IMG/VR virus record: IMGVR_UViG_3300045988_088058
Coordinates: 1-56,846 of that record
DNA from: a virus
Direction: 5' to 3' (one strand)
Length of the DNA: 56,846 bases
In this document: one piece after another, positions 29 to 56,846 of the stretch
Position numbering within the stretch: the stretch's first letter is position 1
How the letters are laid out: every line of letters begins with the position of its first letter
The notes under the pieces: model-generated
What the model was told of the DNA's origin: nothing
Database searches by the model: none
What the model saw: only the letters and a program-made list of their open reading frames with translations
Program-made: the position numbers and the translations under genes

Positions 29-55
29 CTACTTTTTCAAAAGTCTCGAAGCAAT
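1..55. repeat. 55-nt copy of 56792-56846 (circular closure overlap)
   Basis: Exact identity read directly: A9-TAATCAGGAATTTTCCTGACTACTTTTTCAAAAGTCTCGAAGCAAT at both ends. Confidence 0.95.
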
Positions 56-562
56 TGATTGCAAAATGAACTGAACAAAAACTTGGCCTAAAACAGCTGA
101 AGGAATGTCTATATATGCAACTGTTCCAATTCCAAGAGGACTCAATCCTAACGCAATCCAAATAGTTGCATCTATAATAGAACCTATATTGCTTGATAAA
201 GCATTTGCAATCTTCGAGTCGTATTTATTAGACAATCTATTAAATATGAAGACGCTTGCCTTTTGGCCTATCCAAAATGCAACTCCAGAAGCCACGACAA
301 GCGATTGTGGCAGGCTTTGCATTAAGCAAATCAACGAAGTAAGGAATAACCCTACCCATATCAAAGAACCTGTAAATTTTGGCTTCTCGTACTTGCTTAT
401 TAAGTTTATAAGCAGGAAAGTGAATCCCATAAACCAACTGCTAGGAGGAATTAAAATTCCTTTCACATTTAAAGGCTCGAAGTAGATTGTCACAAGATTT
501 GCAATAACGACTAGAGCTATATATGCCACTGAATAAATTTTAGATTTCAATTTCTTCACCAT
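29..562 (-). CDS. yhhQ: YhhQ/VUT-family queuosine-precursor (preQ0/preQ1) transporter homologue
   Basis: 177-aa polytopic membrane ORF. AFWIGQKASVFIFNRL and SNIGSIIDATIW mirror E. coli YhhQ AYALGQILDVHVFNRL and GNVSDTLAFF as I recall them. Confidence 0.65.
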   Translation of the reverse strand: MVKKLKSKIYSVAYIALVVIANLVTIYFEPLNVKGILIPPSSWFMGFTFLLINLISKYEKPKFTGSLIWVGLFLTSLICLMQSLPQSLVVASGVAFWIGQKASVFIFNRLSNKYDSKIANALSSNIGSIIDATIWIALGLSPLGIGTVAYIDIPSAVLGQVFVQFILQSIASRLLKK

Positions 563-39656: not shown

Positions 39657-39712
39657 AAAAGTTGAACTTTTTATAAAAAATGCTTGACTTTATTCGTTTA
39701 TTATCGTATAAT
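39657..39712 (+). promoter_or_regulatory. Early promoter cassette copy
   Basis: Box AAAAGTTGAACTTTT 39657-39671, TTGACT 39684-39689, TATAAT 39707-39712. Confidence 0.8.
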
Positions 39713-39749
39713 GTAACTATAAAGAAAAACAAATAAAGGAGCAAATAAA

Positions 39750-51900: not shown

Positions 51901-51937
51901 TTTGTTTACCCCTTTATTTGTTTTTCTTTATAGTTAC

Positions 51938-51994
51938 ATTATACGATAATGAAATAATAAAGTCAAGCATTTTTGTGTAAAAAGTTGAACTTTT
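51938..51994 (-). promoter_or_regulatory. Early promoter cassette copy
   Basis: -10 51938-51943, -35 51961-51966, box 51980-51994. Confidence 0.8.
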
Positions 51995-51996
51995 TT

Positions 51997-52027
51997 ACAA
52001 AAAAAAATAAGAGCGAAAAGCTCTTAT
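51997..52027 (-). terminator. Rho-independent terminator ending the deazaguanine operon
   Basis: ATAAGAGC-ttttc-GCTCTTAT then T8, immediately after the dpdA-like stop. Confidence 0.85.
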
Positions 52028-52963
52028 CTAAAATAGTCGACGTTGACGATTTTTAATTCCTTTGAATTCATAGTTCTCTGCCCAATCCAGCATGTATTGA
52101 ACATTGAACAATGCTCGAAGTTTATAGTCTTCCACTAATTGCTCAAGACTAAAATGCGCTCCAGTTTCTTCGATAATAGATTCGATTTCAACTTGAACTG
52201 GTTTTGGCAGCCTACGAACAGCATCAATTCCTCCGTTCTTCTGTGACAAGTCAACTAGTCCTTTTGAAGTCATAATGTTTCCCATCGCTCCTGTCAACAG
52301 TACAGAAGTCGAGTCGGCGCTATAGAATGGGTGACGCTCTAATTGGCTAGTAACTGTCATCCCGAAAGCGTGAGTCTTAACATCAGGATTAGAACTGTTT
52401 CGAATAACTTGAAATACTCTTTCCATCCACTTGTCTTTGTGCTTCGTAGTCGAGTCATTGGCTGGAGATATTCCGATGTAAGGAATATGCTTGCCGCCTT
52501 CGAACGTAGTTTCAAGCATTAAGTTCAGCCATTTAAAATCTTCTCCCATATGGAAAATAGGCAAGAGCTTATCCTTTTCAATCATTCTCTCGCGCATGTA
52601 TAGATAGTTATCCCAAGAAATTTGTGGCGCCTCTAAAAGCTGTTCACGTGTCTTAGGCTGTCTAAATACACCGGGAATTTTATCGAGTTCGGCGATACAG
52701 TCGAACATTCCTACATTATCATTGACGTATTCAATGTAGGCGTCAATATCAACTTCAGCTCCCTTAGTATGAGCAGAATATGCACTAGAGTCGACGAATA
52801 GTTTAGAAGTGGTTCCAGGATTGTTCTTCTTGTGTTCAATCCACCTCTTGCCAATTCCGTTTCTTTCGTATAGCTGATTAAAAAGTCGATTAGCTCCTCG
52901 CTCTTTTAAATAATCGTCAGTGCTAATAGCATGCCCTCCGGCAAAGTACAAATTGAATCCCAT
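52028..52963 (-). CDS. dpdA: DpdA-like (TGT-superfamily) DNA guanine transglycosylase
   Basis: 311 aa. Last gene of the que island. FVDSSAYS recalls the catalytic-Asp DSGG motif of TGT; HAFG and ADSTS strand ends; no tRNA-TGT Zn CxCxxC motif seen. Confidence 0.6.
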   Translation of the reverse strand: MGFNLYFAGGHAISTDDYLKERGANRLFNQLYERNGIGKRWIEHKKNNPGTTSKLFVDSSAYSAHTKGAEVDIDAYIEYVNDNVGMFDCIAELDKIPGVFRQPKTREQLLEAPQISWDNYLYMRERMIEKDKLLPIFHMGEDFKWLNLMLETTFEGGKHIPYIGISPANDSTTKHKDKWMERVFQVIRNSSNPDVKTHAFGMTVTSQLERHPFYSADSTSVLLTGAMGNIMTSKGLVDLSQKNGGIDAVRRLPKPVQVEIESIIEETGAHFSLEQLVEDYKLRALFNVQYMLDWAENYEFKGIKNRQRRLF

Positions 52964-52965
52964 TT

Positions 52966-53451
52966 CTACGCTCCAATCATTTTCTTAAAAGCGCTGTTCT
53001 TCGCCAATGTAGATATAACGAAGTATGAAATTAAAACGATAATGGCTTCACTGATTCCTACATAAATGACGGATTCCCAAAATGGCAAAGAGTACACAAT
53101 TCGAAGCTCAAGTGCAATAATGTAAGCATTAGCAAGAACCGGACAGACTAGTGAATACAAAGGGCTCGACATTTTAGCGACTTTCACCATGGAAATAATT
53201 CCAAGGAACGTAGCAAGTGAACCAAAGGCGACATCAATTAGTCCGAGAGGTGAAAAGAAATTTGCAATAATGGTTCCCATAACAATTCCAGGAGTCCATC
53301 TATGATTCCACAAAGGCAAAAGAACTAGAACTTCACTAATTCTAAATTGAACTGGGCCGTAGCTGATTGCAGAAAATGCAATCGTCAATGTAACATACAG
53401 GGAAGCAATAAGAGCAGTTCGAACAAGCCATAAGGTTGCGCTTCTATTCAT
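52966..53451 (-). CDS. queT: QueT-family (COG4708) queuosine-precursor transporter S-component
   Basis: 161 aa; five or six TM helices; pattern typical of QueT; embedded in the que operon. Confidence 0.65.
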   Translation of the reverse strand: MNRSATLWLVRTALIASLYVTLTIAFSAISYGPVQFRISEVLVLLPLWNHRWTPGIVMGTIIANFFSPLGLIDVAFGSLATFLGIISMVKVAKMSSPLYSLVCPVLANAYIIALELRIVYSLPFWESVIYVGISEAIIVLISYFVISTLAKNSAFKKMIGA

Positions 53452-53461
53452 TTTCGTCCTC

Positions 53462-54094
53462 CTATTTGATAAGTTGCATCAATTCAGCTCTAGCTGATGC
53501 GTCATCTTGGAAAAGCCCTCGCATAGTTGAAGTCACTGTCGTTGCTCCATGCTTCTTAATACCGCGTCCGCTCATGCAAGTATGCTCAGCCTCTACGATG
53601 ACTGCAACTGCTTGAGGATTTAGAACTTCCTGAATAGCGTCAGCGATTTGTTGAGTCAAGCGCTCTTGTACTTGAAGTCGTTTAGCATATCCTTCAACCA
53701 CTCGACCGAATTTTGAAAGACCTGTAATCTTATCCTTAGGAATGTATGCAATATGCACCTTCCCTACGAATGGAGCTAAATGATGCTCACACAAAGAGTT
53801 GAAAGGAATATTTTTCACAAGAACAAGATCTTCATGGTCAACGTCAAATGTTTTTTCAAGGTGAAGTTTAGGATCTTCGCGATACCCTACGGTATGTTCT
53901 GCTAGTGCCTTTACAAAACGGAACGGAGTATCTTGTAGTCCGTCACGTTCAGAGTCATCGCCTAATAGGCTGAACAGACCTTGAATAGCCGATTCTGCAT
54001 TGTCAAGGGCGACAATTTCATTTGTCTTAAGAGAAGAAAATCCATTTTCTCTTCCTAGTAAGTCGCCGATTTTATCTAATTGTTCAATTTTCAT
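53462..54094 (-). CDS. folE: GTP cyclohydrolase I
   Basis: Start moved to MKIEQL with SD AGGAG (the track ORF extends into queE); SLCEHHLAPF zinc motif. Confidence 0.9.
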   Translation of the reverse strand: MKIEQLDKIGDLLGRENGFSSLKTNEIVALDNAESAIQGLFSLLGDDSERDGLQDTPFRFVKALAEHTVGYREDPKLHLEKTFDVDHEDLVLVKNIPFNSLCEHHLAPFVGKVHIAYIPKDKITGLSKFGRVVEGYAKRLQVQERLTQQIADAIQEVLNPQAVAVIVEAEHTCMSGRGIKKHGATTVTSTMRGLFQDDASARAELMQLIK

Positions 54095-54095
54095 T

Positions 54096-54890
54096 TTATA
54101 CTCCTCTTTTATTATCATATACCAGTGTATGAAGCTGTGGTAAAGGTCGAACATTGTTAAAAGCTGGATCCTGATATACTTTGTCCCATAGCCAACCTAA
54201 TTTTTCAAGTAGTCGGTCACTGATTTTCCCTTCTTCGTAGGCGTTTGCATTCCCGACTGATAAATAATTGACTGGGCGTAGCTTGTCCTTAAAGGTTTCG
54301 AACATATTTCGAGCGTAAGCTAAATCCGTATCGTCGAAGATTACAATCTTAAACGACCAGTCAAGTCCTTCCTCATTTAGGCGATCTACAATTGCTTCAA
54401 GAATTTTCATATTAGTTCGCATTCCACTTGAAGGTGGTTTAGGACTAATAGTGATATCGCTGACTTCTTTGAACCATTCTTGGAATCGAGTCCCTTGAGT
54501 TTCGAGACCGAACTTGAATCCATGCTCTTTTAGAATCGAAATCATCTTAGCCATAGGCTCGTTAAGTAAGGCAGGGTTTCCTCCAGTCAATGTCACGTGG
54601 TTACAAATCTGCTCACCTTTTTCGTTGAAAGCTAGTTTTAAGATTCGACTAGCAGCCTCATCGCCTGTAATGTATTCAGGTTCAGTAGTACCGTTCCAGG
54701 TAAAGGCTGAGTCACACCAGTTACAATGATAATCACATCCACCAGTTCGAATGAAAATGGTCTTTTGACCTATAACCATTCCTTCGCCTTGGATTGTAGG
54801 ACCGAAGATTTCCATAACAGGCATCTTCTCAGGGTCGCGAACGTTGATTCGAATCTTTCCTCTATCAGGTTGATTGTATTTATTAACCAT
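54096..54890 (-). CDS. queE: 7-carboxy-7-deazaguanine synthase (radical SAM)
   Basis: 264 aa; GGCDYHCNWCDS Cx3Cx2C cluster motif. Confidence 0.88.
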   Translation of the reverse strand: MVNKYNQPDRGKIRINVRDPEKMPVMEIFGPTIQGEGMVIGQKTIFIRTGGCDYHCNWCDSAFTWNGTTEPEYITGDEAASRILKLAFNEKGEQICNHVTLTGGNPALLNEPMAKMISILKEHGFKFGLETQGTRFQEWFKEVSDITISPKPPSSGMRTNMKILEAIVDRLNEEGLDWSFKIVIFDDTDLAYARNMFETFKDKLRPVNYLSVGNANAYEEGKISDRLLEKLGWLWDKVYQDPAFNNVRPLPQLHTLVYDNKRGV

Positions 54891-54892
54891 AA

Positions 54893-55399
54893 TTATTCCT
54901 CTAATAATTCAGCGACAGTGACTTCACTGTTTCCTTCAATGAATTTCACATTCTTGAACATTTCAATTTCTCGGTCAGTGAAAATTTCATAATAGGTGCA
55001 TTCTGCACAACCTGTAGGAGTTTCCCACAATTTTATAGAGTCGATACGAGCATGCTTCCACATAAGCTCAGTGAGCACCCATGTAAGAAATCTTGACATA
55101 TTCTCAGCCGTAGTTCTAAATCCAAAGAGAACTCGCTTAGTGTCCACGGCGTTAGCTAAAGCAATAGGCTCATTTCCTTGAAGAAGGACAGCGTGGTCAA
55201 GTCGGTCGATAAATTTACCTGCGATTTTCTTAACGTGATAAAAGTCAACTACCATTCCTTGACTTGAACCATGGTCAAAAGTTTCACCTGCAAGAGAAAT
55301 TTCTACCTTGTAGGTATGCCCGTGCAAATTTGCACACTTTCCAAAATGCCCAACTAATTGATGAGCGGCATCGAATGTCAATGTTTTAGAAACTTTCAT
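54893..55399 (-). CDS. queD: 6-carboxy-5,6,7,8-tetrahydropterin synthase
   Basis: 168 aa; CANLHGH (CxxxHGH) motif. Confidence 0.88.
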   Translation of the reverse strand: MKVSKTLTFDAAHQLVGHFGKCANLHGHTYKVEISLAGETFDHGSSQGMVVDFYHVKKIAGKFIDRLDHAVLLQGNEPIALANAVDTKRVLFGFRTTAENMSRFLTWVLTELMWKHARIDSIKLWETPTGCAECTYYEIFTDREIEMFKNVKFIEGNSEVTVAELLEE

Positions 55400-55400
55400 G

Positions 55401-56087
55401 TCAGTTCTCCTTGTAATGAATAGGATCAGTCATTCCGTTGTCAGCGAATGCTTTCTTACGGTCAATACATGTCGCGCAAGTTCCGCAACTTTCAGCGTCA
55501 CTTTCATAACATGAACGAGTTAGGAAGTAAGGAACATCTAAATCAAGTCCCCATTTAATAACCTGTGACTTCGTCAGCGTCAATAAGTGAGCGACAAGAG
55601 AAACCTTTCCTCCAGTTCCGTACTCAATTGCGTGTGACATTGAATTGTAGAATTCAGGAGTGCAATCAGGGTAAGCGCCTCCGGCGGCATCATCTGCATG
55701 CGCGCCATATACGACATGAGAAGCTCCAACTGAGTAAGCATAGGCAGCAGCCTGTGAAAGCATTAAACCATTTCTAAATGGGACATAAGTGTCAACAACT
55801 TCTTGCTCTTTTAGAATTTCAGCATAAGATTTTCCATGAGACATTTCCCTCTTGCCTTTCAAGAGAGCTGAACTGGAACTTGAATATAGCTTCTTGTCAA
55901 TTTCGAGAACTGTGAATTTAACTCCATAGAACATTGCAACATTAGCAGCATTTTCAAGTTCAGCTTCATGCTTTTGTCCATAATTAAATGCTACTGCGTG
56001 AACATTTTTAGCGCCCCACTTATCAACTTCGATGGCTAAACAAGTAGCAGAATCGACTCCGCCAGATAATAAAACTACTGATTTCAT
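55401..56087 (-). CDS. queC: 7-cyano-7-deazaguanine (preQ0) synthase
   Basis: 228 aa; PP-loop LLSGGVDS; C-terminal zinc cysteines CGTCATCIDR. Confidence 0.92.
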   Translation of the reverse strand: MKSVVLLSGGVDSATCLAIEVDKWGAKNVHAVAFNYGQKHEAELENAANVAMFYGVKFTVLEIDKKLYSSSSSALLKGKREMSHGKSYAEILKEQEVVDTYVPFRNGLMLSQAAAYAYSVGASHVVYGAHADDAAGGAYPDCTPEFYNSMSHAIEYGTGGKVSLVAHLLTLTKSQVIKWGLDLDVPYFLTRSCYESDAESCGTCATCIDRKKAFADNGMTDPIHYKEN

Positions 56088-56096
56088 CTTAGCCTC

Positions 56097-56618
56097 CTAT
56101 CGAATAGCTCGTCCAAGAGTGTGAACACTTCCAAGATAGTTCAATTTGCGTTGAAGGGAAAGCTGTTCAAGTTCAGGAGTTGAAAATTCTGGATTAACTT
56201 TGTTGACGAATGGGTAAATTGAAATTCCTCCACGAGGAGTAAATAGACCCATGACTTCGATGTACTTAGGATTCATCAATTCATACAAGTCATTCAAAAT
56301 AATGTTCATGCAATCTTCATGGAAGTCGCCGTGGTTACGGAAACTAAATAGGTATAGTTTCAACGATTTAGACTCAACCATCCTGTCATTTGGAATGTAG
56401 CTGATGAAAACATTTGCAAAATCAGGCTGTCCTGTTTTAGGACAAAGTGAAGTGAATTCGTATCCGTCAAATGTTACTAGGTAATTATTTTCAGGATGCT
56501 TATTAGGGAAGGTTTCAAGAACTTCAGGATTATAATCATAATCGTATTTGGTATCTTGGTTGCCTAAAAGAGTAACGCCTGTCAATTCAGCGTCTGTTCG
56601 AGTAGTGTTTTGACTCAT
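56097..56618 (-). CDS. queF: NADPH-dependent preQ0 reductase, unimodular type
   Basis: 173 aa; catalytic Cys in [12 protein letters not shown]; QueF motif ESKSLKLY. Confidence 0.9.
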
Positions 56619-56712: not shown

Positions 56713-56751
56713 GCAATAAAAATAATCAACTAACTTTCTGCTTTATAGTTA

Positions 56752-56780
56752 CATTATACGATAATGAAATAATAAAGTCA
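56752..56780 (-). promoter_or_regulatory. Early promoter cassette copy (no palindromic box; abuts the junction terminator)
   Basis: -10 56752-56757, -35 56775-56780, 17-nt spacer. Confidence 0.75.
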
Positions 56781-56791
56781 AGCATTTTTAC

Positions 56792-56846
56792 AAAAAAAAA
56801 TAATCAGGAATTTTCCTGACTACTTTTTCAAAAGTCTCGAAGCAAT
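56792..56846. repeat. 55-nt copy of 1-55 (circular closure overlap)
   Basis: Exact identity with window start. Confidence 0.95.

Follow-up and report, generated by a model that had tools for sequence, protein, structure and literature searches.

The window, meaning the whole stretch of 56,846 nucleotides (nt) analyzed here (IMG/VR virus record IMGVR_UViG_3300045988_088058), contains seven open reading frames (ORFs) on the minus strand between positions 52028 and 56618, and these are predicted to encode the synthesis of the 7-deazaguanine base preQ1 and its insertion into the phage DNA. The genes, in the order queF, queC, queD, queE, folE, queT, and dpdA, are separated by gaps of 9, 1, 2, 1, 10, and 2 nt and lie between polA and dnaN, physically clustered with the replication genes. 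The seven co-oriented genes with gaps of 1–10 nt described in the initial annotation were recovered, provided that FolE starts at the ATG at position 54094, which is preceded by a GAGGAG ribosome-binding site 6 nt upstream. The longest folE ORF, read from 54154, shares 59 nt with queE, and a still longer overlap is annotated in the record of Streptococcus phage Dp-1; judging from the sequence, the start at 54094, which agrees with the annotation of Streptococcus phage MS1, seems the likelier.

Five of the genes encode the enzymes of the established FolE–QueD–QueE–QueC–QueF route from GTP to preQ1. All of them lie on the minus strand, and their products were compared with the proteins of Dp-1 (HQ268735/NC_015274), whose gp1–gp7 are 86–98% identical in amino acids (aa) to the seven operon proteins. 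FolE, GTP cyclohydrolase I (53462..54094, 210 aa), scored 233 bits with TIGR00063 (cut-off 182), carries the CEHH motif, and is 92% identical to Dp-1 gp5. QueD, 6-carboxytetrahydropterin synthase (54893..55399, 168 aa), passed PF01242 (104 bits versus the cut-off of 22.4), stayed slightly under the TIGR03367 cut-off (88.4 versus 89.25), contains the CxxxHGH motif as CANLHGH, and shares 90% identity with gp3. QueE, the radical S-adenosylmethionine (SAM) 7-carboxy-7-deazaguanine synthase (54096..54890, 264 aa), reached 282 bits with TIGR03365 (cut-off 206), has the motif CDYHCNWC, and is 94% identical to gp4. QueC, preQ0 synthase (55401..56087, 228 aa), was recognized by PF06508 and by TIGR00364 (170 bits versus 150), with the motifs SGGVDS and CGTCATC and 91% identity to gp2. 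QueF, the unimodular NADPH-dependent preQ0 reductase (56097..56618, 173 aa), matched PF14489 and scored 166.4 bits with TIGR03139 (cut-off 86.9); it has the catalytic Cys in SLCP, is 94% identical to gp1, and presents the NADPH motif, defined as E(S/L)K(S/A)hK(L/Y)(Y/F/W) (PMC10516641), in the form ESKSLKLY. By these features, it is classed as the canonical free-base unimodular NADPH type, as opposed to the QueF-L amidinotransferase. The sixth gene, queT (52966..53451, 161 aa), encodes a predicted energy-coupling factor (ECF) transporter S component for queuosine precursors. The protein matched PF06177 along the entire model (126.6 bits versus 33.7, E 1.1e-36, model positions 1–141/141) and no NCBIfam model, and it is 86% identical to gp6. 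The catalytic signatures quoted in the initial annotation (CEHH, CANLHGH, CDYHCNWC, SGGVDS, CGTCATC, and SLCP with ESKSLKLY) were all found in the translations, and the identities it assigned to queF, queC, queD, queE, folE, and queT passed curated profile cut-offs.

The last gene (52028..52963, minus strand) encodes a 311-aa protein previously called a member of the tRNA-guanine transglycosylase (TGT) superfamily, for which searches with hidden Markov models and with structure had been proposed as a check. The profile families gave nothing: neither Pfam nor NCBIfam matched the protein, its 120 listed homologues contained no Pfam domain, and neither phmmer nor a 25-sequence profile found a match in the PDB. 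Weak PDB matches (AcrIC9 with E 0.04, an endoglucanase, and an RNA polymerase subunit) were dismissed as random. The hhalign comparison with E. coli TGT gave a probability of 0.25, the sole aligned stretch being LFVDSSAYS versus ILTDSGGFQ. Smith–Waterman and MAFFT placements on E. coli TGT were unreliable and were not used for residue mapping; in the MAFFT placement, D217 landed on ADKPRY and not on the FDCV nucleophile motif. The superfamily assignment was upheld by other evidence, namely PHROG, homology to phage DpdA proteins, and the structure model. The protein matches phrog_887 ("queuine tRNA-ribosyltransferase") with E 1e-65, and tblastn retrieved 185 phage records, often labelled DpdA or queuine tRNA-ribosyltransferase, among them the DpdA1 of Cellulophaga phage phiSM (34% identity). 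With DpdA of phage CAjan, the identity in BLASTP is 30% over 246 aa (E 1e-27), and deletion of dpdA in CAjan abolishes the DNA modification (PMC6884629).

The AlphaFold2 model built from 25 homologues (predicted local distance difference test score 88.4, predicted TM-score 0.87) showed the (beta/alpha)8 barrel of the TGT type. The best 50 Foldseek matches in the PDB were all bacterial, eukaryotic, or archaeal TGTs, including archaeosine TGT, with a probability of 1.00, E-values from 1e-8 to 2e-7, and query-normalized TM-scores (TMq) of 0.54–0.62, and in the viral library BFVD phage TGT-like proteins, including the nt-1 DpdA2, were matched. Four residues, D58, D94, H138, and D217, are invariant in the 25 homologues and are situated in the model at the C-terminal ends of strands beta3, beta4, beta5, and beta8; D58 and D217 are also invariant in the alignment with the proteins of CAjan, 9g, Rosebush, MS1, and phiSM. 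Their spacing corresponds to that of D95, D130, H181, and D256 in the bacterial enzyme bDpdA of Salmonella, an equivalence drawn from spacing and secondary structure and not from superposition. In the crystal structure of bDpdA, D95 is the acid/base and D256 the nucleophile (PMC10164549). Two features of TGTs were absent from the 311-aa protein. A structural Zn2+ site (CxCxxC...H) was not found, since C89 is the only Cys of the protein and none is invariant in the family alignment, and the Gly-rich beta6-alpha6 loop (GGhsbb/GGLAVGE) is represented by S166-P167-A168-N169-D170. The gene shares one operon with those of FolE, QueD, QueE, QueC, and QueF, and, compared with Dp-1, it is under the strongest constraint in the operon (91% nt and 98.4% aa identity, five substitutions). 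On the grounds of homology and predicted fold, the protein is best described as a DpdA1, a DNA guanine transglycosylase that has diverged from the TGTs proper within their superfamily.

The operon belongs to a phage closely related to Dp-1. In megablast, the operon region matched only Streptococcus phages Dp-1 (100% coverage, 87% nt identity) and MS1 (partially). The whole window is collinear, in the reverse complement, with the 56,506-bp Dp-1 genome, with 96% covered at approximately 82% nt identity and the linear window offset from the Dp-1 record by about 95 nt. The four stretches without a Dp-1 match are each no longer than 0.8 kb and leave no room for a lysogeny module. By this comparison, the window holds the whole genome of a new virulent siphophage of the Dp-1-like kind, a phage of oral streptococci from the group known for 7-deazaguanine-modified DNA. 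Near-identical DpdA proteins are encoded on phage contigs of 46–56 kb, which come from IMG/VR metagenomes and from public sequencing runs assembled in Logan. Dp-1 and the window agree in gene content, order, and orientation, in the place of the operon beside the replication module, in the placement of promoter and terminator, and in the SPAND loop of DpdA (gp7 in Dp-1). They differ in an extra upstream promoter copy in the window and in FolE, which in the window is better read from the downstream start codon.

The modified base of Dp-1 has been identified. Liquid chromatography–tandem mass spectrometry of its virion DNA gave 3389 ± 184 dPreQ1 per 10^6 nt, approximately 1.7% of G, with dPreQ0, dADG, and dG+ each below 6 per 10^6 nt, and the Dp-1 protein named QueF-L was concluded to work as a bacterial-type QueF (PMC6884629). 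The window encodes a canonical unimodular QueF of the NADPH type, and dPreQ1 is therefore the base expected there as well. The prediction that the phage's own DNA is modified by a DpdA-like enzyme is supported by these data and was already established for the group. "Hypermodification", the term used in the initial annotation, overstated a replacement of only about 2% of G in Dp-1. The use of the modification to escape restriction, ascribed to Dp-1, has been demonstrated for CAjan, 9g, and iggy, not for Dp-1 itself; the literature searched yielded no restriction test on Dp-1 DNA. Base exchange on duplex DNA by the 311-aa protein is predicted indirectly, by analogy with Dp-1, in which dPreQ1 occurs together with a 98.4% identical DpdA.

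The relation between DpdA and the kind of base was analyzed in a set of 79 IMG/VR loci and additional Logan loci encoding DpdA relatives (44–99% identity), in which the flanking genes were scored. Three cassette types were distinguished among the Dp-1-like genomes: (a) QueF, QueCDE, FolE, QueT, and DpdA, as in Dp-1 and the window; (b) QueF, QueCDE, FolE, and DpdA without the transporter, as in locus L010; and (c) QueCDE, FolE, Vut_1, and DpdA without QueF, as in MS1 and about 30 loci. In a neighbour-joining tree, the DpdA clades tracked the presence of QueF, and DpdA positions 166–169 separated the QueF-positive from the QueF-negative sets without overlap. All non-identical QueF-positive sequences (17/17) had S-P-A-N followed by D. 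The QueF-negative, pathway-positive proteins (n = 35) had GGLV (26), GGTV (5), or AATT (4). Among the phages with analyzed DNA, the preQ0 inserters carry IGGMVG (CAjan) or LGGLVG (9g and Rosebush), and the phages of preQ1 chemistry, Dp-1 and phiSM, carry ISPAND, as does the window; phiSM is a phage with QueF, DpdM, and the modified nucleoside mdPreQ1 whose DpdA is only 32% identical overall. The loop sequences come from related proteins and are not independent samples, but SPAND is paired with QueF in six or more lineages that are no more than 64% identical.

Residues 166–170 form the beta6-alpha6 loop of the AlphaFold2 model (strand 162–166, helix 176–188), its equivalence with the TGT/bDpdA loop being based on secondary structure and spacing and not on superposition. 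In TGT and bDpdA, where it is rich in Gly (G206-G207-M208-V209 in bDpdA), this loop touches the 7-substituent, and its Val sterically excludes the aminomethyl group of preQ1 (PMC10164549). In the window DpdA, Asn169 takes the position of the blocking Val, with Asp170 next to it. We infer that the Dp-1-type DpdA binds free preQ1, and the Asp of SPAND could pair with the protonated amine of this base. More generally, the beta6-alpha6 loop of DpdA1 might be a readable code for the 7-deazaguanine put into DNA, with GG(L/M/T)VG standing for preQ0, SPAND for preQ1, and AATTD for the phages without QueC, a proposal drawn from sequence comparison to which we give even odds. No mention of the SPAND/GGxVG signature was found in the literature searched. 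The preQ0/preQ1 switch in DpdA1 was left unsettled in an earlier work, the phiSM enzyme being inactive in E. coli (PMC10516641), and the covariation of the loop with QueF, DpdM, and QueC content across distant phages provides a testable explanation of it. If the proposal is correct, DpdA of the Dp-1 clade inserts free preQ1 directly, five residues predict the modification chemistry of uncultured phages, and the specificity should be converted by a loop swap.

Ten loci with DpdA alone and SPAND-like loops seemed to be exceptions. A Vut_1 gene was present downstream of dpdA in all of those examined by Pfam (4/4), and most of the DpdA-only loci have an upstream PF03692 gene with the CxxCxxCC motif (YkgJ-type), the family of the dPreQ1 methyltransferase DpdM. 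The PF03692 gene was found only beside DpdAs of the SPAND (or SPAVD) type. The arrangement of a YkgJ/DpdM-like gene, a SPAND-type dpdA, and a Vut_1 gene with no preQ0 genes within 9 kb was seen in L064 (8185-10713), L075 (8140-10648), L058, L024, and L027; to judge by gene content, such phages may salvage preQ1 and make mdPreQ1. Another arrangement was observed in L081 (9001-13025) and also in L041, L078, and L082: polA, an AATTD-type dpdA, a class I SAM methyltransferase gene, a 196-aa ORF, queD, queE, and folE, with no queC. The lack of QueC means that the pathway would stop at 7-carboxy-7-deazaguanine (CDG), so that CDG or a derivative would be expected as the inserted base, and dCDG or a derivative not yet described may be present in the DNA.

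Altogether, we estimate at roughly 85% the probability that the first early operon of this phage is a self-contained system replacing a small subset of G in its own double-stranded DNA with dPreQ1. In the proposed course of events, the host RNA polymerase would transcribe the operon early from the promoters P1 and P2; their similarity to sigma-70 sites and the place of the operon beside the replication module are consistent with early expression. FolE would convert GTP into dihydroneopterin triphosphate (H2NTP), QueD would convert H2NTP into 6-carboxytetrahydropterin (CPH4), QueE would turn CPH4 into CDG, and QueC would turn CDG into preQ0. QueF would then reduce free preQ0 to free preQ1 with NADPH, and DpdA1 would put preQ1 in the place of guanine at some sites of the duplex DNA, presumably after replication. 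The exchange would follow the TGT-type double displacement, with D217 as the nucleophile and D58 as the general acid/base. QueT, working with the energizing module of the host ECF system, and a Vut_1/YhhQ-like protein might top up the precursor pool by salvage, the host having no preQ0 synthesis of its own, and the phage DNA would be shielded from host nucleases, by analogy with other phages. The gene identities and the orthology to Dp-1 were established by the present comparison, and dPreQ1 in Dp-1 virions by the literature; that DpdA1 takes up preQ1 itself and not preQ0, that the transporters feed the pathway, and that the modification protects the DNA are deductions. For the use of preQ1 itself, support comes from the free-base type of QueF, the complementation of E. 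coli delta-queF by phage QueFs and the direct insertion of preQ1 by the VH7D DpdA2 (PMC10516641), the covariation of DpdA clade and loop with QueF, and the role of this loop in TGT and bDpdA as the element that determines 7-substituent specificity (PMC10164549). The modified subset of G is probably defined by sequence.

Several points weigh against this interpretation. The dPreQ1 data come from Dp-1, and the phage of the window is known from sequence alone. The phiSM protein, the sole QueF-linked DpdA1 tried, was inactive in E. coli (PMC10516641), so preQ1 insertion by a DpdA1 is thus far a prediction. The 2019 assay of Dp-1 is older than the discovery of mdPreQ1 and fdPreQ1, and these derivatives were outside its scope. 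The low level of modification in Dp-1 would limit protection to particular motifs. In addition, GATC is nearly absent from Dp-1 (8 sites, observed/expected (O/E) ratio 0.07), and this avoidance suggests that the modification is no shield from the pneumococcal Dpn systems.

The idea that GATC is itself the modified motif, protected from DpnI and DpnII, was rejected on numbers, the 8 sites in Dp-1 offering 16 G versus approximately 383 modified G per genome. Motif counting cannot name the target, as dozens of 4-mers occur about 380 times. The 8 GATC sites of Dp-1 all lie within 39.2–41.2 kb, and the window has 89 sites (O/E 0.62), 5 of them within the que operon; to judge from these frequencies, Dpn-type restriction probably weighs differently on the two phages. 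TCGA is over-represented in both genomes (O/E 1.35–1.39).

The modification might serve mainly other purposes than anti-restriction, e.g., as a self/non-self mark during host DNA degradation, in packaging, or in the evasion of CRISPR or other defences. The low density and the almost complete avoidance of GATC by Dp-1 speak for such a role, as do the protection against Cas9 in vitro conferred by dPreQ0 of iggy (PMC10484667) and the reported restriction of Dp-1 by S. mitis McrBC, a type of cost borne by a modified genome (PMC6755750). However, every 7-deazaguanine phage tested for function proved resistant to restriction endonucleases (PMC6884629, PMC10484667), and we regard a mainly different purpose as unlikely.

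Somewhat more doubtful is the possibility that DpdA inserts preQ0 and that QueF then reduces the DNA-bound dPreQ0 to dPreQ1, in the manner of archaeal QueF-L acting on tRNA-bound preQ0. This order of steps was left open for Dp-1, HHpred having originally put the phage QueF nearer to QueF-L (PMC6884629), and every biochemically characterized DpdA1 inserts preQ0 (PMC10516641). Nevertheless, TIGR03139 (166 bits) puts the QueF of the window among the free-base enzymes, the NADPH motif missing from QueF-L is retained in it, and the phage QueFs able to complement E. coli delta-queF (PMC10516641) speak for the reduction of the free base. The loop contacting the 7-substituent differs in every QueF-linked DpdA1 (Val to Asn-Asp), the preQ1-linked transporter QueT co-occurs only with QueF, and dPreQ0 was undetected in Dp-1 DNA, i.e., below 6 per 10^6 nt (PMC6884629).

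That the operon serves translation, with preQ1 feeding the host TGT/QueA or the 311-aa enzyme modifying host tRNA, was the original reading of the Dp-1 genes, proposed in early studies (PMC5699537) and reflected in GenBank, where gp7 is labelled a queuosine tRNA-ribosyltransferase and "tRNA modification" is noted, but it is highly improbable given that dPreQ1 is present in Dp-1 virion DNA (PMC6884629), that the 311-aa protein falls into the DpdA1 clade with the DNA-acting DpdA of CAjan and 9g and has neither a TGT sequence match nor a zinc subdomain, and that QueA, QueG, and QueH are not encoded. A side effect of the enzyme on tRNA may still occur. The initial annotation had arrived at DNA as the target from the lack of tRNA genes and the lytic nature of the phage. 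The search for tRNA genes in the whole window was indeed empty, but the argument itself is weak, as host tRNAs are an alternative target; the conclusion rests on the mass spectrometry of Dp-1.

With insertion of preQ1 into phage DNA as the preferred reading, the operon is one that has already been characterized in Dp-1, found here in one further genome and ordinary for the group. The system was re-derived here from the raw sequence, and the practical consequences are modest. The dPreQ1 expected in the DNA of this phage would affect restriction mapping, some sequencing chemistries, and the host range across restriction–modification backgrounds.

Comparisons with other known systems were also made. 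MS1 (KY629621) and the MS1-like metagenomic phages (L012, L028-L052) have genomes syntenic with the window and a dpdA in the same place. The QueE and FolE of MS1 are 93–94% identical to those of the window, whereas for DpdA, which bears the loop GGLVG, the identity falls to 47%. The phages of this group also lack QueF, have a Vut_1/YhhQ transporter instead of QueT, and carry a DUF6884 gene after polA. Their product is predicted from these genes to be dPreQ0. The DUF6884 (PF21818) gene was found in L012 (4123-4563) and about 17 MS1-like loci, between polA and queC and only in QueF-less phages of the GGLVG type, where it occupies the slot of the Vut_1-like gene in Dp-1 and the window. No DpdM-like or DUF6884 genes were detected in the window by tblastn (E > 0.3).

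The DpdA1 proteins of CAjan and 9g (Queuovirinae) share with that of the window the motifs FxDSxAxSAH, HAFG, and YSxDSxS, and their genes are likewise clustered with those of FolE, QueD, QueE, QueC, and a transporter, near DNA polymerase and clamp genes. In contrast to the window, these phages have no QueF, their loop is GG(M/L)VG, and preQ0 is inserted at 25–32% of G (in 9g, then converted to dG+); the target density of the Dp-1-type system is more than 10-fold lower. The phage phiSM resembles the window in the combination of QueF with a DpdA1 bearing the identical ISPAND loop and in the preQ1-based chemistry, despite the low overall identity; it differs in having DpdM, which methylates dPreQ1, and a shorter DpdA (240 aa). 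The bDpdA of the Salmonella Montevideo dpd island and the TGTs have the same TIM barrel and catalytic spacing as the window DpdA, and the bDpdA loop G206–V209 corresponds to S166–N169. Unlike these enzymes, the window DpdA shows no detectable sequence similarity to them, no zinc site, and no DpdB partner, and has SPAND in place of the Gly-rich loop.

Besides QueT, whose substrate and reliance on the host EcfAA'T module are deduced and whose gene is confined to QueF-positive loci within the Dp-1-like phage group, a second transporter gene may contribute to the system. The ORF at 29..562 (minus strand) encodes a divergent 177-aa Vut_1/YhhQ-like membrane protein that matched PF02592 marginally (28.8 bits versus the cut-off of 27.2), with only the C-terminal half of the model aligned, and is 94% identical to Dp-1 gp72 (annotated as DUF165). 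YhhQ belongs to a known preQ0 transporter family. On the circular map, the ORF follows polA and precedes the terminator at 56829-56797, immediately upstream of the operon. In L007 and L008, queF directly follows polA and the Vut_1-like gene is absent, which confirms the circular adjacency and shows that this gene is dispensable. The protein is a probable second transporter of 7-deazaguanine precursors, by its family and position, and an eighth related gene located outside the seven-gene stretch described initially.

The tandem promoters and the terminator reported in the initial annotation were located as near-consensus sigma-70 sites and a hairpin with U9. P1 (56753..56781, minus strand; TTGACT-17-TATAAT) and P2 (56683..56712, minus strand; TTAACA-18-TATAAT) both scored 11/12, and P2 is the equivalent of the Dp-1 promoter annotated at 40–69. 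The number of promoter-like matches in the region (18) did not exceed the shuffled expectation (14.5), so the support for both promoters lies in their position and the agreement with annotated Dp-1 sites. P1 is placed inside a 47-nt block present three times in the genome: at 56741-56787 (minus strand), as an identical copy at 51926-51972 (minus strand), and as a copy with 3 mismatches at 39678-39724 (plus strand), with 0 expected by chance. The block looks, from its sequence and positions, like a reused early-promoter cassette, one copy of which would drive the que operon and another the next operon downstream.

The intrinsic terminator at the end of the operon (51996..52029, minus strand) consists of a hairpin at 52029-52005, whose stem has 10 bp (−10.9 kcal/mol, z −3.1), and a U9 tract behind it; it overlaps the dpdA stop codon, and the Dp-1 terminator is annotated at the same place. 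The upstream terminator (56797..56829, minus strand; −17.4 kcal/mol, z −7.0), matching the Dp-1 terminator annotated at 56442–56472, divides the operon from the preceding polA/Vut_1 unit on the circular map. No preQ1 riboswitch or other RNA element was matched in the whole window by Rfam at gathering thresholds.

Two further observations concern the related loci. In L010 (1260-4640), an ORF for a GIY-YIG endonuclease divides polA into two ORFs (545 and 237 aa), probably through a homing-endonuclease or intron insertion. The operons of L016 and L018 are mosaic with respect to the window, being 98–100% identical in amino acids from QueF through QueE and only 88–90% in FolE and QueT, a pattern that suggests recombination within the operon.

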